Assembly (NCBI GenBank): GCA_963594125.1
Contig: CAVBCV010000001.1
Location: 64,746-128,745 of the forward strand
DNA from: Lachnospiraceae bacterium
Lineage (GTDB): Bacteria > Pseudomonadota > Alphaproteobacteria > RF32 > CAG-239
Length of the DNA: 64,000 nucleotides
Direction: 5' to 3'
The translations under genes were made by a program, and so were the position numbers. The notes under the pieces are model-generated. The model worked only from the letters and a program-made list of their open reading frames with translations. It made no database searches and was not told the DNA's origin. Position 1 is the stretch's first letter. Each line of letters opens with the position of its first letter. This document shows positions 2,626 through 60,929 of this stretch, one piece after another.

Positions 2626-3879
2626 ATGCATTTAAAGGAATTAAAAGATAAATCTCCGCAGGAGTTGCTTACATGGGCGGAAGATTTAGGAGTTGAAGAC
2701 GCATCTTCTATGCGTGTTCAAGATTTGGTTTTTGCCATTATGAAAAAAGTTGCTTCAGAAGACAATGTTATATATGGCGATGGTGTGATTGAGGTTTTGC
2801 AAGACGGATTTGGATTTTTACGCTCATCAAAATCTAACTATTTGGCAAGTCCTGATGATATTTATGTTTCACCGGCACAAGTTAAAAAATTTGGTTTAAG
2901 AACTGGCGATACAGTTGAAGGCGAAATCAGAGCGCCTAAAGATAACGAGCGTTATTTTGCGTTAACCAAAATTAATACTATTAACTATGAAGACCCTGAA
3001 AAATCAAAGTTAAGAGTTAATTTTGATAACTTAACTCCTTTATATCCGACTAAAAAACTTAATTTTGATATTATCTGCGGCGAAAAAGATTATACCACCC
3101 GCGTTATTGACTTAATTGCTCCGCAAGGTAAAGGGCAACGCGGACTTATTGTTGCTCCGCCGCGTACCGGTAAAACAGTTATGCTGCAAAATATTGCGCA
3201 CGCTATTGCCGTTAATCACCCGGAAGTTTATTTGATGGTGCTGTTGATTGACGAACGTCCGGAAGAGGTTACCGATATGACGCGTTCAGTTAAAGGCGAG
3301 GTTATTTCATCAACCTTTGACGAACCGGCAACGCGGCATGTTCAAGTAGCCGAGCTAGTTATTGAAAAGGCTAAGCGTTTGGTTGAAACTAAAAAAGATG
3401 TGGTGATTTTGCTTGACTCTATCACCCGTTTGGGACGCGCCTATAACGCGGTTGTTCCGTCATCGGGTAAAGTTTTAACCGGTGGTGTTGACGCTAATGC
3501 TTTACAACGTCCGAAACGCTTGCTTGGTGCCGCTCGTAATGTGGAAGAGGGCGGATCGCTTACGATTATCGCCACGGCGTTGATTGATACCGGCTCACGT
3601 ATGGACGAAGTTATTTTTGAAGAATTCAAAGGTACCGGTAACTCTGAGATTATTCTTGACCGCAAGCTTACCGATAAGCGCTTATTCCCGACTATTGATA
3701 TTACTCGTTCGGGAACGCGTAAAGAAGAGCTACTTGTTGATAAAACGACGCTTTCAAAAATGTGGGTTCTGCGCCGCGTGTTAATGCAAATGGGTATGAC
3801 CGACGGTATGGAATTTTTACTTGATAAGCTTAGAATGTCAAAAGATAATCAGGACTTCTTTAATAATATGAATAGTTAA
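2626..3879 (+). CDS. rho: Transcription termination factor Rho.
   Basis: 417 aa. N-terminal RNA-binding domain, Walker [13 protein letters not shown], and full-length collinearity with Rho. Confidence 0.95.
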
Positions 3880-3886
3880 AAACTAA

Positions 3887-3919
3887 CTCCTGCTTGTTTG
3901 AAAACGAGCAGGAGTTTTT
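3887..3919 (+). terminator. Rho-independent terminator after rho. It is bidirectional and also serves the convergent response-regulator gene.
   Basis: Stem CTCCTGCTTG/CGAGCAGGAG with an 8-nt loop, followed by TTTTT. An A-run on the other side provides the T-tract for the minus strand. Confidence 0.7.
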
Positions 3920-3931
3920 CTATCTACAAAA

Positions 3932-4561
3932 TTAAATAAGCCCCATTTTTTGAGCTGTTATAACCGCTTGGGTGCGGTTAGTTACATTTAGCGAGCGCAA
4001 AAGAGCGTTAATATGTAGTTTAACCGTTGCTTCAGACACGCCCATTTCATAAGCAATTTGTTTGTTGGATTTTCCTTCGGCGATTAAATCAAGCACTTGG
4101 GACTGCCGGTGAGTTAAACTTTTGATACTTACTTTATAATGAGGAGTGTAAAGACCTTCATTATCGGTTTTACTTAAAGCGGAAGGAATATAACTGCCGC
4201 CGTTTAAAATGTTTTTGAGCGCTTGTTTAATAGTTTTACTCTCAGAGCGCTTTAGAATAAATCCTTTGATGTTTTTATCTAAAATTTTGCGGATTTTACG
4301 AATATCTTCACATGCTGAAAGACCGATTATCTTAATATCCGGGGCTTTTTGCTCTAAAAACTTTATACCTTCTTCCCATTTTACGTCTGACATATCTAAG
4401 TCAAGAATAATAAAATCTATTGAGCTTTCTTCATAAATTATTTTTACAGCTTGCGAAAAGTTAGAGGCTTGAATAATAATCGTATCAGGAAATTGTTGTT
4501 CTAAATCAAGCGCAAGGCGGTCGCGGTATAACGGATGGTCATCGGCAATCAAAATTTTCAT
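3932..4561 (-). CDS. NarL/FixJ-family response regulator (REC domain plus LuxR-type HTH).
   Basis: 209 aa. The receiver N-terminus is KILIADDHPLYRD with the conserved Asp in FIILDLDMSD. The C-terminal HTH is QSQVLDLIAEGKSNKQIAYEMGVSEATVKLH. No adjacent histidine kinase. Confidence 0.8.
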   Translation of the reverse strand: MKILIADDHPLYRDRLALDLEQQFPDTIIIQASNFSQAVKIIYEESSIDFIILDLDMSDVKWEEGIKFLEQKAPDIKIIGLSACEDIRKIRKILDKNIKGFILKRSESKTIKQALKNILNGGSYIPSALSKTDNEGLYTPHYKVSIKSLTHRQSQVLDLIAEGKSNKQIAYEMGVSEATVKLHINALLRSLNVTNRTQAVITAQKMGLI

Positions 4562-45755: not shown

Positions 45756-48700
45756 ATGAAAACGCAATATAAAAACTTTATCAGTAAAGTTAACCAGACC
45801 GGCAGCCTTATGATTGAGGCGATGGCAATGTTGGCGTTAATTTCATTGGTTACGCCAACCCTTTACAAAAAATCGGCGGAAAGAACCACTGAATTGCAGG
45901 ATATTAACACCGCAACTCATGTGCGCACCATTATGAAGGCGGTTGACAACTATGTTACCGCTAACTACCAGAGTTTGCTTGATACCAAGCTGCGCACTGA
46001 CGGTTCAGTTTATGAAATTGATTTGAATGATGACAGTTCGGAAGACAGTATTCATGACTTTTTCCCGTATGGTTATAAGTTTGATGACTTAAAGAACTTC
46101 GGTATGCCGAAAGTTATGTTGAAAAGACAAGGATTTTCAATTACGTCATTTGTACAGCTGCCTAAAAAGACCGACATCGGCGAGATGCGCGCCGCGCGTA
46201 TTGCCTCAATGATTGGTAGTAACGGCGGTTATGTTAACAGCGACAAAAACGCGCTTGGCGTTGGTGGCGTGTGGAGCTTGAATCAGGCTGATTTGACCTC
46301 ATTGGGTTTTGATACCAATAAAGGTTCAGTGGTTGTGGCTTCATCAGACGCTATTAACTCGGCATCAACCGGTGCGCTTGAAAATGATAAATACTTGCAA
46401 AGAACTCCGGTAGACAGACCGGATCAGCTGTGGCGCAATACCATGATTACCGACCTTTACATGGGCGGTGTTACCGGTGTTGACGATATGTATAAAATTT
46501 TGGGTGTTGACCAGTTGATTATGGGTAGTGCTGAAAAAGCTACCTATCAGGATAGGGAAACCTTGGTTTTGACTGAAGATGCTCAAGGCGGTGGTTCTGC
46601 TTGGATGGCGGGCACGTTGTCAGCTTTAAGCGACGCGTTTAAGGTTAATGGCACTTCTGATGAGCCAATTTTGACCTTTGCTGATGCTGATGGCACGATT
46701 ATGTCAGCGGATTCGCACCTTTTTAATGTATTCCCTACTGCCGATGGCGGTGTTGGACTTGAGATTAATGGGGATAATTCCAGTGTTGTTACCGATTATG
46801 CCACCACGATTAATAATGATTTAACGGCAACCGGCGATACCTTAGTGGCAAGCGGAGGAACCGATACCTCATTTAAGGCAGGTCCGGACGGACGTTATAT
46901 TACAGCTGACGCCTCAAAAGTTTTGTTGCAAAACGGGCAAGTTGAAATTTTGGATGATGACGGCAGCGGCGCGGTAACCAATATTAAGGGCAGAGCTAAT
47001 ATTACCGGCGCGACTACGGTTGGCACCAAAGCTACAGATGCCACGGATGGCGATATGGAGGGCATACATAACAATTATCAGCTTAAAGTTTACGGTACCG
47101 GTAATGCTTATGTGGCAAATGACTTGGTTGTCGGCAACACTTTATATACTAAAAAGTTTAATACTGCGGAACTCCATGCCGGCGGCGAATTGTTGGCGAA
47201 CGATAATGCTCGTTGGTTGCATGCAACCACAAACGGCGTTAAAGTTACTGACCCGACCGATTCTGCTAATGTCAAAACCCGCATGGAAATTACGCAAGAT
47301 ACGACCGCTTTATATAATAGAGAGGGGTCTAATTCTTTAACCGGCGGTGAGATGGTGTTGGGGGCGAGCGGTTCCCGTTTAACCGGTAACGATATGGTTG
47401 AACTTTATACCACTGATGATAACGGAGAAGTTCAGTTACAAGATAAAGCTTTGGTTATCAGAGGCAAAACCGAAACAAGCGGCGGCAGAAACGCGATTAT
47501 CAGCGCAGATGCCGACACGATAGATTTTAACGCTAACTATACCTCAGTTAATGACGGTGTATTTCGGGTTAGACGTGAAGATAATGCTGCCGGTATGCAG
47601 GACAGCTTGTATGTGAACCCGAATGAAAATACTAACCAAGGTTTGGTTTTGGCAGAGGCTAACCGCACCACGGTTAGACCGCGAGGCAATGATGGTATTT
47701 TTGATGTTCAGGATGAGGATGGTAAACGAGTTTTGAACGTTATGCCGAACGGGCTTAATGGCGAAACAGTGAATGTAGGATATAACTCATATACTCGTCC
47801 GATTGGTACGGTTGATGTGGATAAAGAAAGTGTCAGCTTCTCAGATGTAACCGGTGGTTCGGCTTATCGGGTTGTTGAAGTTGATCTTGATAGGTCATTG
47901 GCGCAAAAAACAGATGATAGCAATCCGACCAGAGGCAGCGTTTATATTCGTCGCGGCGCGGTTGAATTAGAATCGCCAAGCGGAGCCGGATATGAGGCTG
48001 ATGCCGGTTATGGCTATATTGAAGCCGGTCGTTTTGTGGCTAACACTAAATATGATGGCACGAAAATTGATAATCCGTCGGATGCTTATCCGAGTGATTA
48101 TACAAAAGGCTGGAATACATCAGACAGAGTTGCCTATGATCGTTATATGGTTAATCCGGCTTATACCTCAGTTATGCATGATATTAAGCTCACGACCCGC
48201 GGCGGCGCGCGTTTAAGCGATATTTTGCCTGACTTTATTAATAAAGGTATTTATGTGGTGAACAATACTTATAAAGATACCGGTTTCAGTCTTGATAGCA
48301 TTACGGCAACAGTTAATAATGGCGGTCAAATTTCGGTAAGCGCAGGCGCGGGCGCGGATGTTACAGAAGTTCCTGGTGGCTCTTTATCTGGTGCAGATCA
48401 ATGGGCGTCACCGTTTTTGGGCGTGGTGCCGGCGCCGTTATGTCCTCCGGGGCATGCCCGCGTGATTACGATTACGCCGGCAGGTTTTCAGATGTCACAA
48501 GCCGGACAAATGGTTAAAAGAGAGCATTATGTTGGGGCTGGAAAAACTGGCGCTGGTAACCGCTTTGTGGTTGATGAAAGAGCAAACTTGGAGGAATTAG
48601 GACAAGTTAAAATAAATATGGCTGATGATACGCAAACAATTAGCGGCGCGCAGTATTATCATAATACGATTACGGATTCCGCCAATAACACTCGTGACCT

Positions 48701-49211
48701 TTATTACTTAGGTCACGCGAATGAGCCTACATTAACTAAGACAAATAATGATCCGTATTCACCGCAGCCGCTTTATTTCCAACAAAGCACCTGGCTGAAG
48801 AGTAAAGTACAGCCGCAGGCTAATGGCGCAAAGGGTTCATGTAATAATACTTTGGGCAGTGGCGAAGGTTGTACAAACTTTGTAGGTTGGTCGGCAATTA
48901 TGGGCTTTATTTATCCGGCAAGTTTGTATGAAAATATTATCAGCGCGGTTGTAGGAAATCCTCCTAAGGATGAAGATGTTTACTGGAACGTCTTTCCGGT
49001 TAAAGCCAAAACGTTGGAGGCGTACGCTACGGTTTATTGTTACTTTGATAGGACTAACTTGTATGTTCTGCCAGGTGAAAAAGGTCTACAACCTGAGTAT
49101 ACCGATCAGTATGATCAGTTAAACTCATTCAGAACAGGTCGTACAAAACCGAATAGTACTTATACCGACAGATTGGATGACCCGACCTTGAAATATAAAG
49201 AACCGTGGTAA
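45756..49211 (+). CDS. Giant (1151 aa) type IV pilin-like protein with a class III (prepilin) signal peptide. Putative modular pilin or adhesin.
   Basis: Strong AGGAG RBS. N-terminus MKTQYKNFISKVNQTG|SLMIEAMAMLALISLVTPTLY has G at -1 and E at +5 and a hydrophobic alpha1-N, followed by a pilin-like amphipathic segment (YKKSAERTTELQDINTATHVRTIMKAVDNYVTANY). The remaining roughly 1050 residues are G/T/D/N-rich and beta-rich, with Cys residues only near the C-terminus. A terminator follows. Confidence 0.6.
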   Translation: MKTQYKNFISKVNQTGSLMIEAMAMLALISLVTPTLYKKSAERTTELQDINTATHVRTIMKAVDNYVTANYQSLLDTKLRTDGSVYEIDLNDDSSEDSIHDFFPYGYKFDDLKNFGMPKVMLKRQGFSITSFVQLPKKTDIGEMRAARIASMIGSNGGYVNSDKNALGVGGVWSLNQADLTSLGFDTNKGSVVVASSDAINSASTGALENDKYLQRTPVDRPDQLWRNTMITDLYMGGVTGVDDMYKILGVDQLIMGSAEKATYQDRETLVLTEDAQGGGSAWMAGTLSALSDAFKVNGTSDEPILTFADADGTIMSADSHLFNVFPTADGGVGLEINGDNSSVVTDYATTINNDLTATGDTLVASGGTDTSFKAGPDGRYITADASKVLLQNGQVEILDDDGSGAVTNIKGRANITGATTVGTKATDATDGDMEGIHNNYQLKVYGTGNAYVANDLVVGNTLYTKKFNTAELHAGGELLANDNARWLHATTNGVKVTDPTDSANVKTRMEITQDTTALYNREGSNSLTGGEMVLGASGSRLTGNDMVELYTTDDNGEVQLQDKALVIRGKTETSGGRNAIISADADTIDFNANYTSVNDGVFRVRREDNAAGMQDSLYVNPNENTNQGLVLAEANRTTVRPRGNDGIFDVQDEDGKRVLNVMPNGLNGETVNVGYNSYTRPIGTVDVDKESVSFSDVTGGSAYRVVEVDLDRSLAQKTDDSNPTRGSVYIRRGAVELESPSGAGYEADAGYGYIEAGRFVANTKYDGTKIDNPSDAYPSDYTKGWNTSDRVAYDRYMVNPAYTSVMHDIKLTTRGGARLSDILPDFINKGIYVVNNTYKDTGFSLDSITATVNNGGQISVSAGAGADVTEVPGGSLSGADQWASPFLGVVPAPLCPPGHARVITITPAGFQMSQAGQMVKREHYVGAGKTGAGNRFVVDERANLEELGQVKINMADDTQTISGAQYYHNTITDSANNTRDLYYLGHANEPTLTKTNNDPYSPQPLYFQQSTWLKSKVQPQANGAKGSCNNTLGSGEGCTNFVGWSAIMGFIYPASLYENIISAVVGNPPKDEDVYWNVFPVKAKTLEAYATVYCYFDRTNLYVLPGEKGLQPEYTDQYDQLNSFRTGRTKPNSTYTDRLDDPTLKYKEPW

Positions 49212-54645: not shown

Positions 54646-55005
54646 TTATTTTTTAAGAGCCGCTTTGGCAGAATCTACCAGTTTAGCAAAAGCTTGGGGC
54701 TCTTTCAAAGCGATATCAGCGAGAACTTTACGGTCAAGTTCAATGCCGGCTTTAACGAGCCCGCTGATAAATCGGGAATAAGTCATATCATGCAGACGGG
54801 TTGCGGCGTTAATACGCTGAATCCACAACGCGCGGAAACTTCTTTTCTTTGCGCGGCGGTCGCGGTAAGCATATTGCAAACCTTTTTCAACTTTTTCAAC
54901 AGCAACTCTGAATACATTTTTATTACGACCGGTGTAACCTTTAGCCATACCAAGAATTTTCTTGTGGCGAGCATGAGCGGTCATACCTCTTTTAACGCGT
55001 GACAT
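54646..55005 (-). CDS. rplT: 50S ribosomal protein L20.
   Basis: 119 aa. [18 protein letters not shown] ... YRDRRAKKR. Confidence 0.97.
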
Positions 55006-55018
55006 ATCTTAATCCTCC

Positions 55019-55216
55019 TTACAAATACGGTAAAAACTTTTTGACAATCTGAACATCAACTTCGTTTAACAAAACGGAGCCGCGAGCCTGTCTTTTCATT
55101 TTCTGAGATTTGCAGAAGAGGCAGTGTCTCTTAAATGCATAATTTCTTTTAATTTTGCCGGTTCCGGTAACGCTGAAGCGTTTCTTTGCGGCACTTTTTG
55201 ATTTTAATTTAGGCAT
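55019..55216 (-). CDS. rpmI: 50S ribosomal protein L35.
   Basis: 65 aa. MPKLKSKSAAKKRF ... basic. Confidence 0.93.
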   Translation of the reverse strand: MPKLKSKSAAKKRFSVTGTGKIKRNYAFKRHCLFCKSQKMKRQARGSVLLNEVDVQIVKKFLPYL

Positions 55217-56447: not shown

Positions 56448-56742
56448 TTAAACCAAAGGGTGCGCCTTGTCAAGGTTATCTTATGATTGTGAGAATTTCA
56501 GTATTGACAGATTTGACAAATAATCTTATAATAATCTTGTTTACTTAAAAATATGTTCATTATTATGTTGAAAATTCGGTTGGTTTTAGGTTGTCAGCTT
56601 AAAAACAGTCAGAAAATGCAGCGGAAAGTGAAAATTTTGCGGTGAGCAATCGTTATTGTGGCATATTCTGCCATCTCCCTTTGACGGTTTACTTTAATTT
56701 ATTTGTTCTATCGGAGAGTAGACGCCATTAAAATTATTTCTT

Positions 56743-57726
56743 ATGGCAAAATTTTTTCAGTTTCTGGGAAGTATCTTAGAGGGACTTCTGATGGTTGTAA
56801 TTTTTTACAATCCTGTATCTTTCGTGATTTGGAGTTTTGTCGCTCCGAGGAAAGCCGCCGCAATTATGGTCATCAAAGATGATGACTCAAAGTTTATGGA
56901 CTTTTTGAGCAATCTGCACAAGCCGCTCACTCATCTGTACCCGATGTGTATCAGAAAGCACTTCATGAAGGCTTTGGGGATGTTTAATTATTCCGCAAAG
57001 GCTCAGGTAAAAGCTTTCAGAGCCTTGAGCGAAACAGATTCGCCTGAAAAGGCAGTCAAAATCGTTAAGCAAATGAGTGACTTAGGAGCATCCAAACTTT
57101 GGGATGACAATATGGTCAGGAACCGGAGTTATAACCACATAATTACATATGCGGTAACTGAATCCGGAAAATCGTTGACAACTCGTCAGCTTAAAGACTT
57201 GTTCGCGAGGGAAGATTACGCCAATTTTGCTGTCTATGCCAAGAATCACACTCTGAGCAAAGCCGCTTTGGAATTGCTCATTGAGAGAATGAAGCAGAAG
57301 TCAGGAGACAAAGAGTCTTTTGATGAGTTGCAAGGCGTTCTTTTTAGTCAAATTGAAAAGAACGGTCTTCCGGCGAATCTGGTGGAAAAGGCAGTGGAGG
57401 CATGCGGTGAGAATCAGCTTGCTATCACAAAAGCTTTTGAAGTATTCCGCCAAAAGACGGTCGTGCTTTCAAGGCAAAAAGAGGCTTTTGTTCCACTTAT
57501 TAAGTATGAAAAGCTTTATCCTTCGGTGGAGGCGATGCTTAGTGAGGAGCAATACAAGCTCTATTTAGAAACGGGTAGGCGCTTGAGCGATGAGGCTATT
57601 CGTGAGTTTATCGCTCGCGAGAACATTGGCATGTGCAAGCTTATCTTTAAAAATGAAAAGCTTTCACCAATAGCGTTGTTGATGGCCAAGGCGAATCCTA
57701 AATTCGCCGTGATGATGTACGTCTAA
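56743..57726 (+). CDS. Hypothetical protein with an N-terminal hydrophobic segment. First gene of a compositionally atypical cluster.
   Basis: 327 aa with no recognisable motif. Codon usage (AAG, CTG, AGG/AGA, GAG frequent) differs visibly from flanking housekeeping genes, which favour AAA, TTA/TTG, CGC/CGT and GAA. Confidence 0.5.
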   Translation: MAKFFQFLGSILEGLLMVVIFYNPVSFVIWSFVAPRKAAAIMVIKDDDSKFMDFLSNLHKPLTHLYPMCIRKHFMKALGMFNYSAKAQVKAFRALSETDSPEKAVKIVKQMSDLGASKLWDDNMVRNRSYNHIITYAVTESGKSLTTRQLKDLFAREDYANFAVYAKNHTLSKAALELLIERMKQKSGDKESFDELQGVLFSQIEKNGLPANLVEKAVEACGENQLAITKAFEVFRQKTVVLSRQKEAFVPLIKYEKLYPSVEAMLSEEQYKLYLETGRRLSDEAIREFIARENIGMCKLIFKNEKLSPIALLMAKANPKFAVMMYV

Positions 57727-57744
57727 CTATAAAAACTGACAAAC

Positions 57745-58281
57745 ATGACAGATTTTCAAATTATGCTGGGCGGGCTTTCGTTAGTCTTGTTCGGCGGAGC
57801 TTTCACTTTACTGTTGTGGGGTGATTGGAAAAAGGCAAAAGCTTTTAAGGCTATTCTGATTGTGGTTGTGGCTATCAGCGCAGTTGGCGCTTTTTACGCC
57901 ATATACAGCCAGATTAAGCTTACTGAGCAAACAACTGAAAAGTATGTGCTTGTCTCTTTTGAGAACCAGTATTCAACAGTTAATGAAACTGATGTAATCG
58001 GGCTTGATGGAGATTCATACACTATCCTTCCTACCGGCAACAAGCTTCTTAAAAAGACCTTGTACGGGAATTTGGAGTGGCGGGATACTTCGGTTGTTCA
58101 GCAAATTGATTCAGCAGGCAACAGCGAGCCAATACGCATTGTTACGCTAAAAGCCAAAACGCTCAGAATCGGCAGCGCAGAAGCAACCAGGCCTAACCAA
58201 TCCGGCGCCGAGATTAAAGTAAAATGCCGGTATAACATTGGGGATACGGTAAAGGTCCGCGGCGACCGCATCGTTCCTTAA
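57745..58281 (+). CDS. Hypothetical two-TM membrane protein with a beta-rich C-terminal domain.
   Basis: 178 aa. TM1 LGGLSLVLFGGAFTLLLW and TM2 ILIVVVAISAVGAFYAIY. C-terminal ...KCRYNIGDTVKVRGDRIVP. A terminator follows. Confidence 0.5.
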   Translation: MTDFQIMLGGLSLVLFGGAFTLLLWGDWKKAKAFKAILIVVVAISAVGAFYAIYSQIKLTEQTTEKYVLVSFENQYSTVNETDVIGLDGDSYTILPTGNKLLKKTLYGNLEWRDTSVVQQIDSAGNSEPIRIVTLKAKTLRIGSAEATRPNQSGAEIKVKCRYNIGDTVKVRGDRIVP

Positions 58282-58293
58282 CGATTATTTCTT

Positions 58294-58323
58294 AAAAAAC
58301 TCCTCAGTTGAGGAGTTTTTTTA
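58294..58323 (+). terminator. Rho-independent terminator inside the atypical cluster.
   Basis: AACTCCTCA-GT-TGAGGAGTT followed by a T8 run. Confidence 0.85.
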
Positions 58324-58388
58324 ATGCCCTCTTGATTTATTTTAAAGTTCTCGTTATAAGGTAATCAGAAACCAAATTTTTATGATAT

Positions 58389-58994
58389 ATGTATGAGATT
58401 TTAAGAGTTGTGATGATTGTTTGCGAAATCGCGATGATCATCGGTTTTGTGTTCTTTGTTATCTTCCAAGCTTATTTTTGGAGCGACAAAGATCATTCTA
58501 AAACCTTTTTCATGTTTGCGCTGTATTCATTGCTTGGCGTGAGTATTTGCGGATGGTTTATTCATGGCTGCGCGCTGAATACGGGCGCTATTGTGCCTGC
58601 GGTTGCGGTATTGCTGATTATGGCTCAATTTTGCTTTTTTAAGGAGCGGTGGCAAAACTTTCATGTTAAGGAGCGCTCGCTTTTTAAGAAGCTCAAAAAA
58701 GCGCATATCTTTGCAATTTTGGCACTGATACTGTGTTTTTCAGGCGGTTACGGCTATTGCAAAAAGCAAAGAGCGGATTATCAACGCGCGCATGCAGATA
58801 TGTATGTGGTTGTCGGGTTTAATGTGAAGGCGGCAAATTATGGTCTGGTCTCAGTATATGATACGGATGATGACCATTTGTTTGTGGCACTCAGACCTGT
58901 AAATCGCTTTAAAGCAAATCCGAAAGTGTTAATGACCAGAAAATATCATCTTGGGGATACGGTATTGATATTTCACAATAAACCACTTTCATGA
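58389..58994 (+). CDS. Hypothetical 4-TM membrane protein.
   Basis: 201 aa. The C-terminal motif ...KYHLGDTVLIFHNKPLS resembles the C-terminus of the preceding gene (RYNIGDTVKV). Overlaps the next gene by 4 nt (ATGA). Confidence 0.5.
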   Translation: MYEILRVVMIVCEIAMIIGFVFFVIFQAYFWSDKDHSKTFFMFALYSLLGVSICGWFIHGCALNTGAIVPAVAVLLIMAQFCFFKERWQNFHVKERSLFKKLKKAHIFAILALILCFSGGYGYCKKQRADYQRAHADMYVVVGFNVKAANYGLVSVYDTDDDHLFVALRPVNRFKANPKVLMTRKYHLGDTVLIFHNKPLS

Positions 58995-59557
58995 TGTATG
59001 CAGCAGCGCTTGCAGGCATGATTATTTGCGGAACGTTTCTGTTGCTCGCTTTCATATTTTATGTACGCGCGCAATGGGTGTTTTGGTTCTATTACGGGGA
59101 AGAGCTGTATTGTCCGATAGGTTTTATTATGGTGCTTTTGTTTAGTGCCTCTTATGCGGACATGCTGCTTCCGCTTAACGGAGCCAATTTGTTAAGTTCC
59201 GCTTTAATTTTTATGTTTGCGTCCGCCGCACAATATGTGTGCGGTCAGGTACGGTTGGCTGAAATGCACAATACACCCCCGTGGTGTTGGGAGCATTATG
59301 CCAAAAAATTTATGCCGGTGTTTATTGTCGCCGTTGTTGCTTTGCGCTTTGCTTTTGCAGGGTGCTTGGAATATCGGGAAAATTACCGTTGGAACAATGC
59401 CGAATCGGTTGAAGGAAATTCGGAAGTGAGAGTTTTTAACGGTAAGCAAATTAAACGGCCGGTTTCGGAACTAATGCTTGAGCAACAAAAAATAGGCTCG
59501 GCAGTTGCCAAAGAAAGACAACGCGCCGCCAAAGCCAAGCGAAAGTCAAGCAAATGA
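58991..59557 (+). CDS. Hypothetical multi-TM membrane protein with a basic C-terminal tail.
   Basis: 188 aa. The tail is KERQRAAKAKRKSSK. CTG-rich codon usage. Confidence 0.5.
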   Translation: MMYAAALAGMIICGTFLLLAFIFYVRAQWVFWFYYGEELYCPIGFIMVLLFSASYADMLLPLNGANLLSSALIFMFASAAQYVCGQVRLAEMHNTPPWCWEHYAKKFMPVFIVAVVALRFAFAGCLEYRENYRWNNAESVEGNSEVRVFNGKQIKRPVSELMLEQQKIGSAVAKERQRAAKAKRKSSK

Positions 59558-59588
59558 AAAAAGGCGCTGTTAAGCGCCTTTTGTTTTA
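59558..59588. terminator. Bidirectional terminator, shared by the cluster and convergent der.
   Basis: AAGGCGCT-GTTAA-GCGCCTT followed by TTGTTTT. Overlaps the der stop codon. Confidence 0.8.
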
Positions 59589-60929
59589 TTCGGCATAGGG
59601 GTTGTCAGATTTGCGCACGGTAACGCGTACCGGCACCCCGCCTAAATTGAAAGTATCGCGCAGGCTGTTAACCAAATAGCGTAAATACGAATCGGGCAAA
59701 CCCTCCGGATTGCTTGAAAAAATGTAAAATGAAGGCGGGCGGGTTTTAGCCTGAGTGATGTATTTTAACTTAATCCGGCGTTTGTTTTTACCCAAAGGCG
59801 GAGTGTTTTGTTCCTGCACGTCAGAAAACCACTTGTTTAGCGGTGCGGTCGGGATACGAGTGTTCCAGCGGTCATAAACCTTAAACACCGCGCTCATTAA
59901 TTTATCTAATCCCTCATTTTTAAGTGCGGAAATTGTAACAGTCGGCACGCCGGTTATTTGGGTTAAGGAGGTTTGCAGTTTATCATTTAATTTTTGCAAA
60001 GCCTCAGAGCGTTTGGCAATATCCCATTTATTAACCGCTATTACCAATGCGCGCCCTTCATCAATTACCTGACGCGCAATGGTTAAATCTTGCTTGTCTA
60101 AAACGGCATCGGCATCAAGCACTAAAACCACAACTTGAGCCATAAAGGCAGCATGTTTGGTGCTTGCGGCGGACATTTTTTCAAGCGAATCGGTAATTTT
60201 AGACTGACGGCGCAATCCGGCGGTGTCAACTAAGTTGATTTTGCGACCTTTCCACTGCCATTCGGAAGTGATGGCATCGCGGGTAATGCCTGCTTCAGGA
60301 CCGGTCAGCATACGCTCGTCATGGAGCAAGGCGTTTACTAACGTTGATTTACCGACATTCGGGCGTCCGACAATAGCGAGCTGTATAGGTCTTTCTTCAG
60401 AAGATTCTTCCGGCTGTTCTTCAGGTTCAGGGCTGATTTTGGCGTTAATTTCAGCTAAAGACGAATATAAATCTTCAAGCCCTAAGCCGTGTTCGGCTGA
60501 AAAAGGAATCGGTTGTCCAAGCCCTAATTTATAAGCCTCAAAGATGTTGTCTTCTTGGGCTTTGCCCTCGCATTTATTGGCAAGTAAAATAACCGGCTTA
60601 TGGCTTTGACGTACTAACGCGGCAAAAGTTTCATCATAAGGGTGCAGACCGGCGCGGGCGTCAAACATAAATAAGCAAACATCAGCTTCGTTGATGGCGC
60701 GCTTGGTTTGAGCAAGCATGCGTTGTTCAATGCTGTTTTCTTTGGCGTCTTCAAATCCGGCGGTATCTGTTAAACACAAGTCAAGATTTTTGAAACGAAC
60801 AATCGCTTCTTTGCGGTCACGCGTAACCCCCGGCTTATCATGCACAATAGCGAGTTTTCTACCGGCTAAGCGGTTAAACAGCGTTGATTTTCCTACGTTT
60901 GGTCTGCCGATTACTGCCACTTTTAACAT
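59586..60929 (-). CDS. der: Ribosome-biogenesis GTPase Der (EngA), with tandem GTPase domains and a KH-like C-terminus.
   Basis: 447 aa. G1 motifs GRPNVGKST occur twice (residues 8-16 and about 186-194). Confidence 0.95.
   Translation of the reverse strand: MLKVAVIGRPNVGKSTLFNRLAGRKLAIVHDKPGVTRDRKEAIVRFKNLDLCLTDTAGFEDAKENSIEQRMLAQTKRAINEADVCLFMFDARAGLHPYDETFAALVRQSHKPVILLANKCEGKAQEDNIFEAYKLGLGQPIPFSAEHGLGLEDLYSSLAEINAKISPEPEEQPEESSEERPIQLAIVGRPNVGKSTLVNALLHDERMLTGPEAGITRDAITSEWQWKGRKINLVDTAGLRRQSKITDSLEKMSAASTKHAAFMAQVVVLVLDADAVLDKQDLTIARQVIDEGRALVIAVNKWDIAKRSEALQKLNDKLQTSLTQITGVPTVTISALKNEGLDKLMSAVFKVYDRWNTRIPTAPLNKWFSDVQEQNTPPLGKNKRRIKLKYITQAKTRPPSFYIFSSNPEGLPDSYLRYLVNSLRDTFNLGGVPVRVTVRKSDNPYAE

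Follow-up and report, generated by a model that had tools for sequence, protein, structure and literature searches.

Here, we describe four adjacent plus-strand genes, designated g1 to g4, that lie next to trpS in a 64,000-nucleotide stretch of contig CAVBCV010000001.1 (assembly GCA_963594125.1), hereafter the window, to which all positions refer unless a related locus is named. The four genes form an operon, which is probably a resident, recombining and fast-evolving locus and neither a foreign insertion nor a set of NfeD-type membrane proteins. An earlier sequence-only reading had described them as a compositionally atypical membrane-protein island, acquired from a higher-GC donor and wedged between trpS and der, with NfeD-like C-termini in g2 and g3.

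Conserved position of the cassette

Related loci are numbered with the prefix L; those collected via der come from metagenome-assembled genomes of the human and ruminant gut. The cassette adjoins trpS, divergently, in all the relatives that cover the site, namely L004 (MGYG-HGUT-00610), L082-L087, L090 and L091; the sequences of L002 and L003 end short of it. The arrangement trpS / g1-g4 / der is common to the window, L004 and L091. In L082-L087, which represent the contexts of three g1 clusters, the same four genes stand in the same order, divergent from trpS, and are followed beyond g4 by a 250-aa gene, Ion_trans, Peptidase_A24, L25, pth, ychF and a 167-aa gene, and then by der and bamB. The most distant relative, L090 (trpS nucleotide identity of 85-87%, g1 41% identical), reads trpS / g1 g3 g4 / Ion_trans, A24. 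The features of the cassette in the window are as follows.

56743-57726, plus strand: g1, an open reading frame (ORF) of 327 aa
57745-58281, plus strand: g2, an ORF of 178 aa
58389-58994, plus strand: g3, an ORF of 201 aa
58991-59557, plus strand: g4, an ORF of 188 aa
55359-56447, minus strand: trpS, left flank of the cassette
59586-60929, minus strand: der, right flank of the cassette
56504-56532, plus strand: sigma-70-type promoter of g1, TTGACA-17-TATAAT, matching the consensus at 12 of 12 positions
56540-56742, plus strand: putative structured 5' leader of g1, about 200 nt, recognised by conservation, folding and covariation
58294-58321: hairpin terminator after g2, AAAAAACTCCTCA / TGAGGAGTTTTTT, a perfect inverted repeat of 13 nt with a T-run behind it
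59559-59582: bidirectional hairpin terminator after g4, now serving der as well

The ORFs, the 4-nt overlap of g3 and g4, the terminator inside the cassette and the one at its end had all been proposed from the sequence alone, and each was recovered. The g1 promoter stands about 210 nt upstream of the g1 ATG, with both hexamers kept in all six aligned relatives, and the g2 terminator is retained in L090 despite the deletion of g2 there. The spacing of g3 and g4 depends on the allele type: the two genes overlap in the window and are separated by a gap of about 100 nt in L082-L090, with a hairpin in the gap of L090. A promoter-like sequence, TTGATT-17-TATAAG, lies 3' of the g2 terminator (58322-58388) and has the counterpart TTGATT-17-TATAAA in L090, which suggests that g3 and g4 could be transcribed from it as a second unit.

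On the far side, the genes next to der in L002 and L003 (der 96-98%) are, in order, the 167-aa gene, ychF, pth and L25. Since the relatives share the long order from g4 through this block to der, the long arrangement is ancestral, and the window, L004 and L091 have lost about 4.7 kb here (compare L084 11028-15655 and L086 11010-16304), comprising the pilin-like gene, the Ion_trans channel, the prepilin peptidase A24, L25, pth, ychF and the 167-aa gene. The contact between g4 and der is therefore secondary, and what had been read as a wedge between two housekeeping genes is better described as a cassette fixed to trpS, with a loss of DNA on its other side. The junctions agree: in L082, L084 and L086 the same hairpin follows g4 and der has a separate, different hairpin, which is gone from the window, so that the terminator at 59559-59582 belongs to the cassette (AAAAGGCGCT..AGCGCCTTTT at every locus compared). 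The L25-pth-ychF block was not found in the rest of the 64-kb window, and its near-essential genes must therefore sit elsewhere in the genome.

No flanking direct repeats beyond chance-level 12-nt repeats were found at the cassette borders, no integrase, transposase or tRNA target was seen among the ORFs and borders in 54-64 kb, and a scan of viral contigs for g3 returned no copy. Rather than being absent from the corresponding site of close relatives, as a recent island would be, the cassette is present there, the outgroup L090 included, and neither mobility signatures nor deviant base composition distinguish it. By these comparisons, the four genes appear to be a resident locus at a fixed trpS-adjacent site and not a foreign insertion.

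The genes beyond the cassette in the relatives offer another explanation, namely that g1-g4 serve a type IV pilus or pseudopilus as accessory proteins. Next to the cassette, L082 and L086 encode a protein of 250-256 aa with a prepilin signal (G|RSMVEMLGVLAIIG; N_methyl E = 0.019) and then Peptidase_A24, and strain variability is common in pilin loci. We nevertheless regard this explanation as very unlikely, because the pilin-like and A24 genes are convergent to the cassette, separately terminated and missing from the window, where the cassette persists; moreover, prepilin motifs are absent from g1-g4, which also lack matches to Pil and Gsp families, and the distant homologues of g1 are solitary in unrelated contexts.

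The 250-256-aa gene (L086 11067-11819 and L082 11037-11807, both minus strand), which adjoins the A24 prepilin peptidase, is cut to 49 aa in L084, and L090 lacks it altogether, so that variability extends to the right of the cassette as well.

Allelic divergence and recombination

The cassette proteins are only 46-66% identical to those of L082, L084 and L086, whereas the flanking proteins (trpS, der, rplT, rpmI) are 95-100% identical, with rplT and rpmI at 100%. In the same comparisons, the cassette shows nonsynonymous divergence (dN) of 0.25-0.43, synonymous divergence (dS) of 0.9-2.4 and dN/dS of 0.16-0.34, as against a dS of 0.13-0.45 and a dN/dS of 0.01-0.06 for the flanks. The boundary is sharp: nucleotide identity in 100-nt windows is 0.85-1.0 over rplT, trpS, the promoter and the leader, and against L082, L084 and L086 drops at the g1 ATG to about 0.5-0.75 through the end of g4.

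The history of the cassette also differs from that of its flank. By trpS nucleotides, the window is nearest to L086 (0.94) and L004 to L082 (0.97), whereas by cassette the window and L004 pair up (76-81%) and are 45-66% identical to L082, L084 and L086, i.e., further from them than the outgroup L090 is (50-76%). Within the window-L004 pair, g3 and g4 have dS of 0.44-0.62, equal to the flanks. The g1 alleles are block mosaics, P0006 beginning as type C and continuing as type A, and P0008-P0010 following a C-A-C pattern. Taken together, divergence with sharp edges, mosaic genes and conflicting trees point to homologous exchange of old alleles across conserved flanks. The idea of horizontal acquisition accordingly survives in part: the locus does bear marks of horizontal exchange, as allele replacement among relatives and not as import from a higher-GC donor.

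Across all comparisons, dN/dS of the cassette genes is 0.08-0.34. The ORFs are intact and of similar length across the relatives save in L090 (2865-2993), where g2 is deleted and its last eight codons (VRGNRIVR*) and the hairpin terminator are left between g1 and g3. Because the ORFs are kept with a dN/dS of 0.1-0.3, the genes are evidently maintained under purifying selection.

The main alternative to a role in conflict is neutral fast evolution, in which lineage-specific orphan membrane genes diverge under weak constraint and ordinary recombination. The range of dN/dS is relaxed, though never near 1, variation is spread along the proteins, g2 has been deleted outright in one relative, the use of rare codons (AGR, CTG) fits low expression, and dS in g3 and g4 of the window-L004 pair is at flank level. 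Against these points, the ORFs, their lengths, the invariant cores and the leader are kept down to 42% identity, dS in the cassette exceeds the flank values by a factor of 3-10, the allele tree is at odds with the trpS tree, and identity drops sharply at the g1 ATG. We consider neutral divergence possible, though somewhat unlikely.

The resident, recombining locus proposed here resembles strain-variable envelope loci (capsule, O-antigen, pilin and immunity-gene cassettes), which occupy a fixed site and are exchanged by homologous recombination across conserved flanks. The resemblance extends to the fixed position, the conserved flanks and the sharp drop in identity at the edge, as well as to divergent high-dS alleles, mosaic genes, conflict between allele and flank trees, and the presence or absence of g2. 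In contrast to such loci, the cassette has no biosynthetic or toxin gene alongside, its proteins cannot be placed in any known family of surface structures, toxins or immunity proteins, and their surface or periplasmic exposure is a prediction from sequence.

Composition and codon usage

The cassette genes have a GC content of 0.41-0.45 and a GC3 of 0.44-0.50, matching the neighbours (GC 0.41-0.48, GC3 0.42-0.52). Since both measures are host-like, they give no pointer to the higher-GC donor that had been proposed. Synonymous codon choice does deviate. Relative to the rest of the window, the cassette shows higher fractions of AAG among Lys codons (0.49 vs 0.19), GAG among Glu codons (0.50 vs 0.24) and AGR among Arg codons (0.41 vs 0.15), and a lower fraction of TTR among Leu codons (0.39 vs 0.60). 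In codon-usage distance, g1 ranks 1st, g2 4th, g3 8th and g4 15th among 51 genes.

Part of the excess of G-ending codons is a strand effect, as third positions are asymmetric throughout the 64 kb (G3 > C3 in plus-strand genes, C3 > G3 in minus-strand genes). The skew persists against other plus-strand genes (AAG/Lys 0.49 vs 0.26, p = 1e-4; GAG/Glu 0.50 vs 0.25, p = 6e-4; TTR/Leu 0.39 vs 0.65, p = 2.5e-6); the genes used for comparison are highly expressed housekeeping genes. The atypical codon usage noted in the sequence-only reading is therefore real as a synonymous skew, and part of it belongs to the strand. The same trend in AGR, CTG and TTR is present in the cassette alleles of the relatives against their own flanks; it follows that the skew belongs to the locus and is no signature of a fresh import. 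It is most simply explained by weak translational selection. If the third-position asymmetry reflects replication skew, the aminoacyl-tRNA synthetase and ribosomal-protein genes of the window would sit on the lagging strand.

These results bear directly on the island acquired from a higher-GC donor. The extreme synonymous codon choice of the cassette among the window genes speaks for it, and the greater distance of the window/L004 cassette type from other alleles, compared with that of the outgroup, would fit import from a more distant relative. However, GC and GC3 equal those of the neighbours, the borders lack direct repeats, an integrase and a tRNA, homologous cassettes stand at the same trpS-proximal site in all relatives, the junction with der is a secondary 4.7-kb loss, the conserved flank extends without a break through promoter and leader, and no viral-contig copy was found. 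Such an island is, in our judgement, highly improbable. Resident fast-evolving loci that mimic foreign islands are a frequent pitfall where codon usage and housekeeping neighbours serve as the sole criteria for an island.

The leader RNA of g1

Leader identity is 76-96% per 100-nt window across relatives, and the leader is kept across all cassette alleles, including that of L090. On the plus strand, its minimum free energy is -49.4 kcal/mol (z = -2.3; 3 of 200 shuffles were as stable), compared with z = +0.4 for the minus strand of the same region. In the predicted fold, UUUGCGGUGAG, about 110 nt upstream, is paired with the g1 start codon and the bases after it, and UCUCC with GGAGA; an alternative predicted fold places the start codon within a local GCCAU...AUGGC hairpin. 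Because the start codon is paired in both predicted folds, the leader RNA probably gates translation of g1.

The leader extends beyond this clade. A search with nhmmer, using a hidden Markov model (HMM) of the clade's leader, found a homologue directly upstream of P0044, a protein 27% identical to g1 (E = 2e-7). Furthermore, the regions upstream of P0042, P0045, P0055 and P0063 share TATTATTAGGTT, GGCCGAA.TTGAAGTAACTCT, UCUCC, AUCGGAGA and GCCAUUAAAA...AUGGCA. Copies of the leader were located upstream of g1-family genes at the following positions.

L092, 1208-1412
L096, 1791-1927 and 2874-3010
L098, 272-412
L088, 7882-8010

With ten sequences, RNAalifold predicted a 9-bp helix, a stem of 3 bp that encloses the AUCGGAGA loop, and a GCC...GGC hairpin in which the AUG lies. 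The 3-bp stem is CCC/GGG in some sequences and UCU/AGA in others. Drawing on about five independent lineages, compensatory changes were seen in 8 of 15 pairs, 88% of pairs were formed compared with 74% in shuffles (reached in 0 of 500), and the covariation score was 0.495, as against 0.278 in shuffles (0 of 500) and 0.11-0.20 with slid partners. A covariance model run over 1.37 Mb of related DNA matched only regions upstream of g1-family genes, among them the second L096 copy, on which it had not been trained. No match at E <= 1 to any of 4227 Rfam covariance models was found for the leader of the window or of four distant loci. The predicted leader structure is supported by these comparisons, not established.

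Two other readings of this region were rejected. The upstream ORF of a supposed leader peptide (MFIIML...) is missing or shortened in L088, L093 and L094, all of which retain the nucleotide motif, and the minus strand, read as a trpS leader, shows no excess stability (z = +0.4) and has a positive covariation term. We also noticed that in L082 and L083 (L082 at about 7971) the g1 ATG is ACG; the leader partner stays compatible (G-U to G-C), and the protein was called from a Met further downstream.

The g1 leader is comparable to translational cis-regulatory leaders such as riboswitch expression platforms and RNA thermometers, being likewise a long conserved 5' untranslated region behind a strong promoter. 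Such leaders sequester the initiation region, as the pairing of the g1 start codon in the predicted folds would do, and the g1 leader shares with them pairable conserved UCUCC and GGAGA segments, a covarying 9-bp helix and restriction to a single gene family. Unlike them, it has no Rfam match and no assigned ligand or signal, and GGAGA, at about 29 nt from the AUG, is too distant for an ordinary Shine-Dalgarno sequence. The leader is a concrete candidate for a new regulatory RNA tied to an unannotated protein family.

The g1 protein family

The g1 protein has N-terminal hydrophobic helices at residues 2-44, arranged around an invariant N23-P24, followed by a predicted all-alpha solenoid. The AlphaFold2 (AF2) model built from 24 sequences has a mean predicted local distance difference test score (pLDDT) of 84.8 and a predicted template modelling score of 0.73, and consists of 22 helices, all-alpha. 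A search among 5.8 billion entries gave only 25 close g1 clusters, and a profile search of 1.84 billion representatives gave 86 proteins at E <= 1e-3, of which 37 reach E <= 1e-10. The profile matches are full-length and the proteins span 320-380 aa, and the distant homologues are solitary, in unrelated contexts, without g2-g4. By these matches, g1 belongs to a wider uncharacterised protein family, whose members (about 330-380 aa) combine a hydrophobic helical anchor at the N-terminus with an all-alpha solenoid.

Foldseek returned only generic ARM/TPR/ankyrin-like matches for g1 (E >= 0.03, template modelling score <= 0.32), and a Pfam scan of 36 distant homologues gave single-member noise matches only. 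The modelled stack of 22 short helices is shared with alpha-solenoid repeat proteins (ARM/HEAT/TPR/ankyrin-like; leucine-rich repeat variant), but g1 differs from these in that its fold matches are all non-significant, no Pfam repeat family is detected, and a hydrophobic N-terminal anchor with an invariant N-P is present.

At L096, two g1-family paralogues stand in tandem (1791-2658 and 2874-4044), each with its own leader (117.7 and 117.1 bits). The first was called at only 207 aa, with a start about 110 nt past the leader AUG, suggesting a miscalled start or a frameshift.

The small membrane proteins g2, g3 and g4

Alignment and profile comparison indicate that g2, g3 and g4 are distant paralogues, predicted to be small polytopic membrane proteins with two, four and four transmembrane (TM) helices, respectively. 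In g2, the two TM helices precede a C-terminal domain of about 115 aa, expected to be beta-rich, that ends in C-[RK]-Y-x-[IV]-G-D-T-V; the family alignment has an invariant core at residues 81-100 (ETDV.G.D.DSYTILPTGNK). Its deletion in L090 makes g2 dispensable in one relative. In g3, four TM helices precede a C-terminal domain of about 65 aa, predicted to be beta-rich, that ends in Y-H-L-G-D-T-V. AF2 places g3 helices at residues 2-30, 36-60, 68-83 and 100-135, and the N-terminal TM helices are also seen in the hydropathy profile. The g4 protein is a g3 paralogue across the four-TM region, with invariant FWFYYGEELY and EYR.NYRWN.AE segments and a variable C-terminal tail rich in Lys and Arg, as had been pointed out.

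The paralogy is seen with hhalign, which aligned g3 with g4 over 126 columns of the four-TM region (94.7% probability, E = 5.8e-8) and g2 with g3 over the last TM helix of g3, the linker and the first strand (92% probability). The C-terminal motif that the sequence-only reading had noticed in both g2 and g3 is real: Y-x-x-G-D-T-V is invariant in both families ([RK]Y[NH][IL]GDTV in the window), and 18 of 21 nucleotides of the motif are identical between the two genes. With a charge of about +8 in the g3 loop preceding the last TM helix and +4 in the g2 inter-TM loop, the positive-inside rule implies that the C-terminal domains of g2 and g3 should face the periplasm.

That motif had been likened to the C-terminal domain of NfeD-type proteins, which would make g2 and g3 parts of an NfeD/SPFH membrane scaffold, each with an oligonucleotide/oligosaccharide-binding (OB) domain, alongside a partner of stomatin type. 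In NfeD, the C-terminal domain is a five-stranded OB-fold beta-barrel (PMC4208085), and NfeD genes are operon partners of SPFH (stomatin/flotillin/HflKC) genes (PMC2636767). Short NfeD proteins (PF01957; YbbJ, YuaF and the PH1510 C-terminal domain, from SPFH operons; PMC2636767, PMC4208085) likewise combine TM helices, a trait that the g2/g3 hydropathy profile and the g3 AF2 helices reproduce, with a small C-terminal domain, probably a beta-barrel in g2 and g3 too, whose last strands carry a G-D-x-V-like motif. In addition, 5-6 strands appear in the C-terminal model of g3, for which small barrels of the SH3/OB type come out best among the fold matches, none of them significant.

However, PF01957 gave no match at E <= 1 to the full proteins and none at E <= 10 to the isolated C-terminal domains of g2 and g3, while the positive control, Escherichia coli YbbJ, scored 3.5e-12. 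The g2 and g3 profiles aligned to YbbJ by hhalign with only 0.1-0.2% probability. No NfeD structure was found by the PDB profile searches or among the g3 fold matches, which comprised generic small barrels only (uL2 SH3-like domain, EutN, ABC C-terminal OB domain; E >= 0.14), and the g3 fold model is too weak for an OB assignment. An SPFH/Band_7 match was found neither in g1-g4 nor in the called neighbours in the relatives, in agreement with the earlier remark that a stomatin partner is absent, and g1 is all-alpha instead. On the strength of the HMM and profile tests with a passing control, together with the missing SPFH partner, membership of g2 and g3 in the NfeD family was rejected, and we hold the scaffold explanation to be extremely improbable.

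Searches of g1-g4 against Pfam, NCBIfam, PHROGs and PADLOC gave no match above noise, consistent with the earlier description of membrane proteins devoid of a recognisable enzymatic motif, and PDB profile searches with the alignments of g1, g2, g3 and g4 gave nothing at E < 0.1. Matches to DUF4131 (E = 0.001, TM helices only) and SduA (E = 0.003, 14.8 bits) were rejected as hydrophobic or chance matches. A prophage lysis cassette was likewise ruled out, as an endolysin, PHROG support and a viral-contig copy were all lacking. Homologues of g2 and g3 were searched with a word-indexed tool, those of g4 by a pattern scan of metagenome contigs, and those of g3 also by a scan of viral contigs; the cassette is apparently confined to a small group of uncultured gut Alphaproteobacteria.

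Possible role of the cassette

How the resident, recombining locus might work can be outlined conditionally. Transcription of g1 would start at the consensus sigma-70 promoter and pass through the structured leader of about 200 nt, which would gate translation by base-pairing the g1 start codon. The four products could form a membrane complex with the C-terminal domains of g2 and g3 turned towards the periplasm. Alleles would be swapped by homologous recombination across the conserved leader and terminator, under purifying selection, while an external antagonist (a phage, bacteriocin or interbacterial toxin, for example) would put the periplasm-facing parts under diversifying or frequency-dependent pressure. 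A tentative and, in our view, rather unlikely assignment is that of an exclusion/immunity-like or receptor-like envelope module. More doubtful still is the wider proposal that the leader is a new cis-regulatory RNA class, similar to a riboswitch or thermometer, gating translation of a membrane-anchored alpha-solenoid family, which in one genus recruited three paralogous membrane proteins into a recombining, diversifying module of exclusion/immunity type that has no known relative.

Several observations weigh against this outline. Variation is scattered over TM and non-TM parts of the cassette proteins, and overall dN/dS is well under 1, which makes relaxed constraint a live alternative. Saturation, and codon selection weaker than that on the housekeeping flanks, may account for part of the high cassette dS. 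No cassette protein matches a characterised family, and a role driven by an antagonist is therefore a conjecture. The covariation of the leader comes from about five independent lineages. The AF2 model of g3 is weak, with a pLDDT of 56 overall and about 70 over residues 137-199, where it shows 5-6 strands. The Lys/Arg-rich tail of g4 speaks for a C-terminus in the cytoplasm, in conflict with the orientation deduced for g3. Finally, the spread of g2-g4 may be understated by the types of search used. If the mosaic fast evolution does reflect conflict with phages or competitors, the four families would provide a handle on envelope defence and recognition in uncultured gut Alphaproteobacteria.

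Divergence of neighbouring genes

Two further observations concern genes to the left of the cassette. Synonymous divergence of rplT and rpmI (54646-55216) is 0.01-0.08 against all relatives, compared with 0.13-0.45 for the adjacent pheS and trpS, suggesting either very strong codon selection or a recent recombination sweep. Farther to the left lies an ORF of 1151 aa (45756-49211, plus strand) without a Pfam family. Over its 3' end and the spacer behind it (about 48.6-49.3 kb), nucleotide identity to the relatives is 74-80%, whereas the genes from proS on show 88-95%, and this ORF may be another fast-evolving gene nearby.

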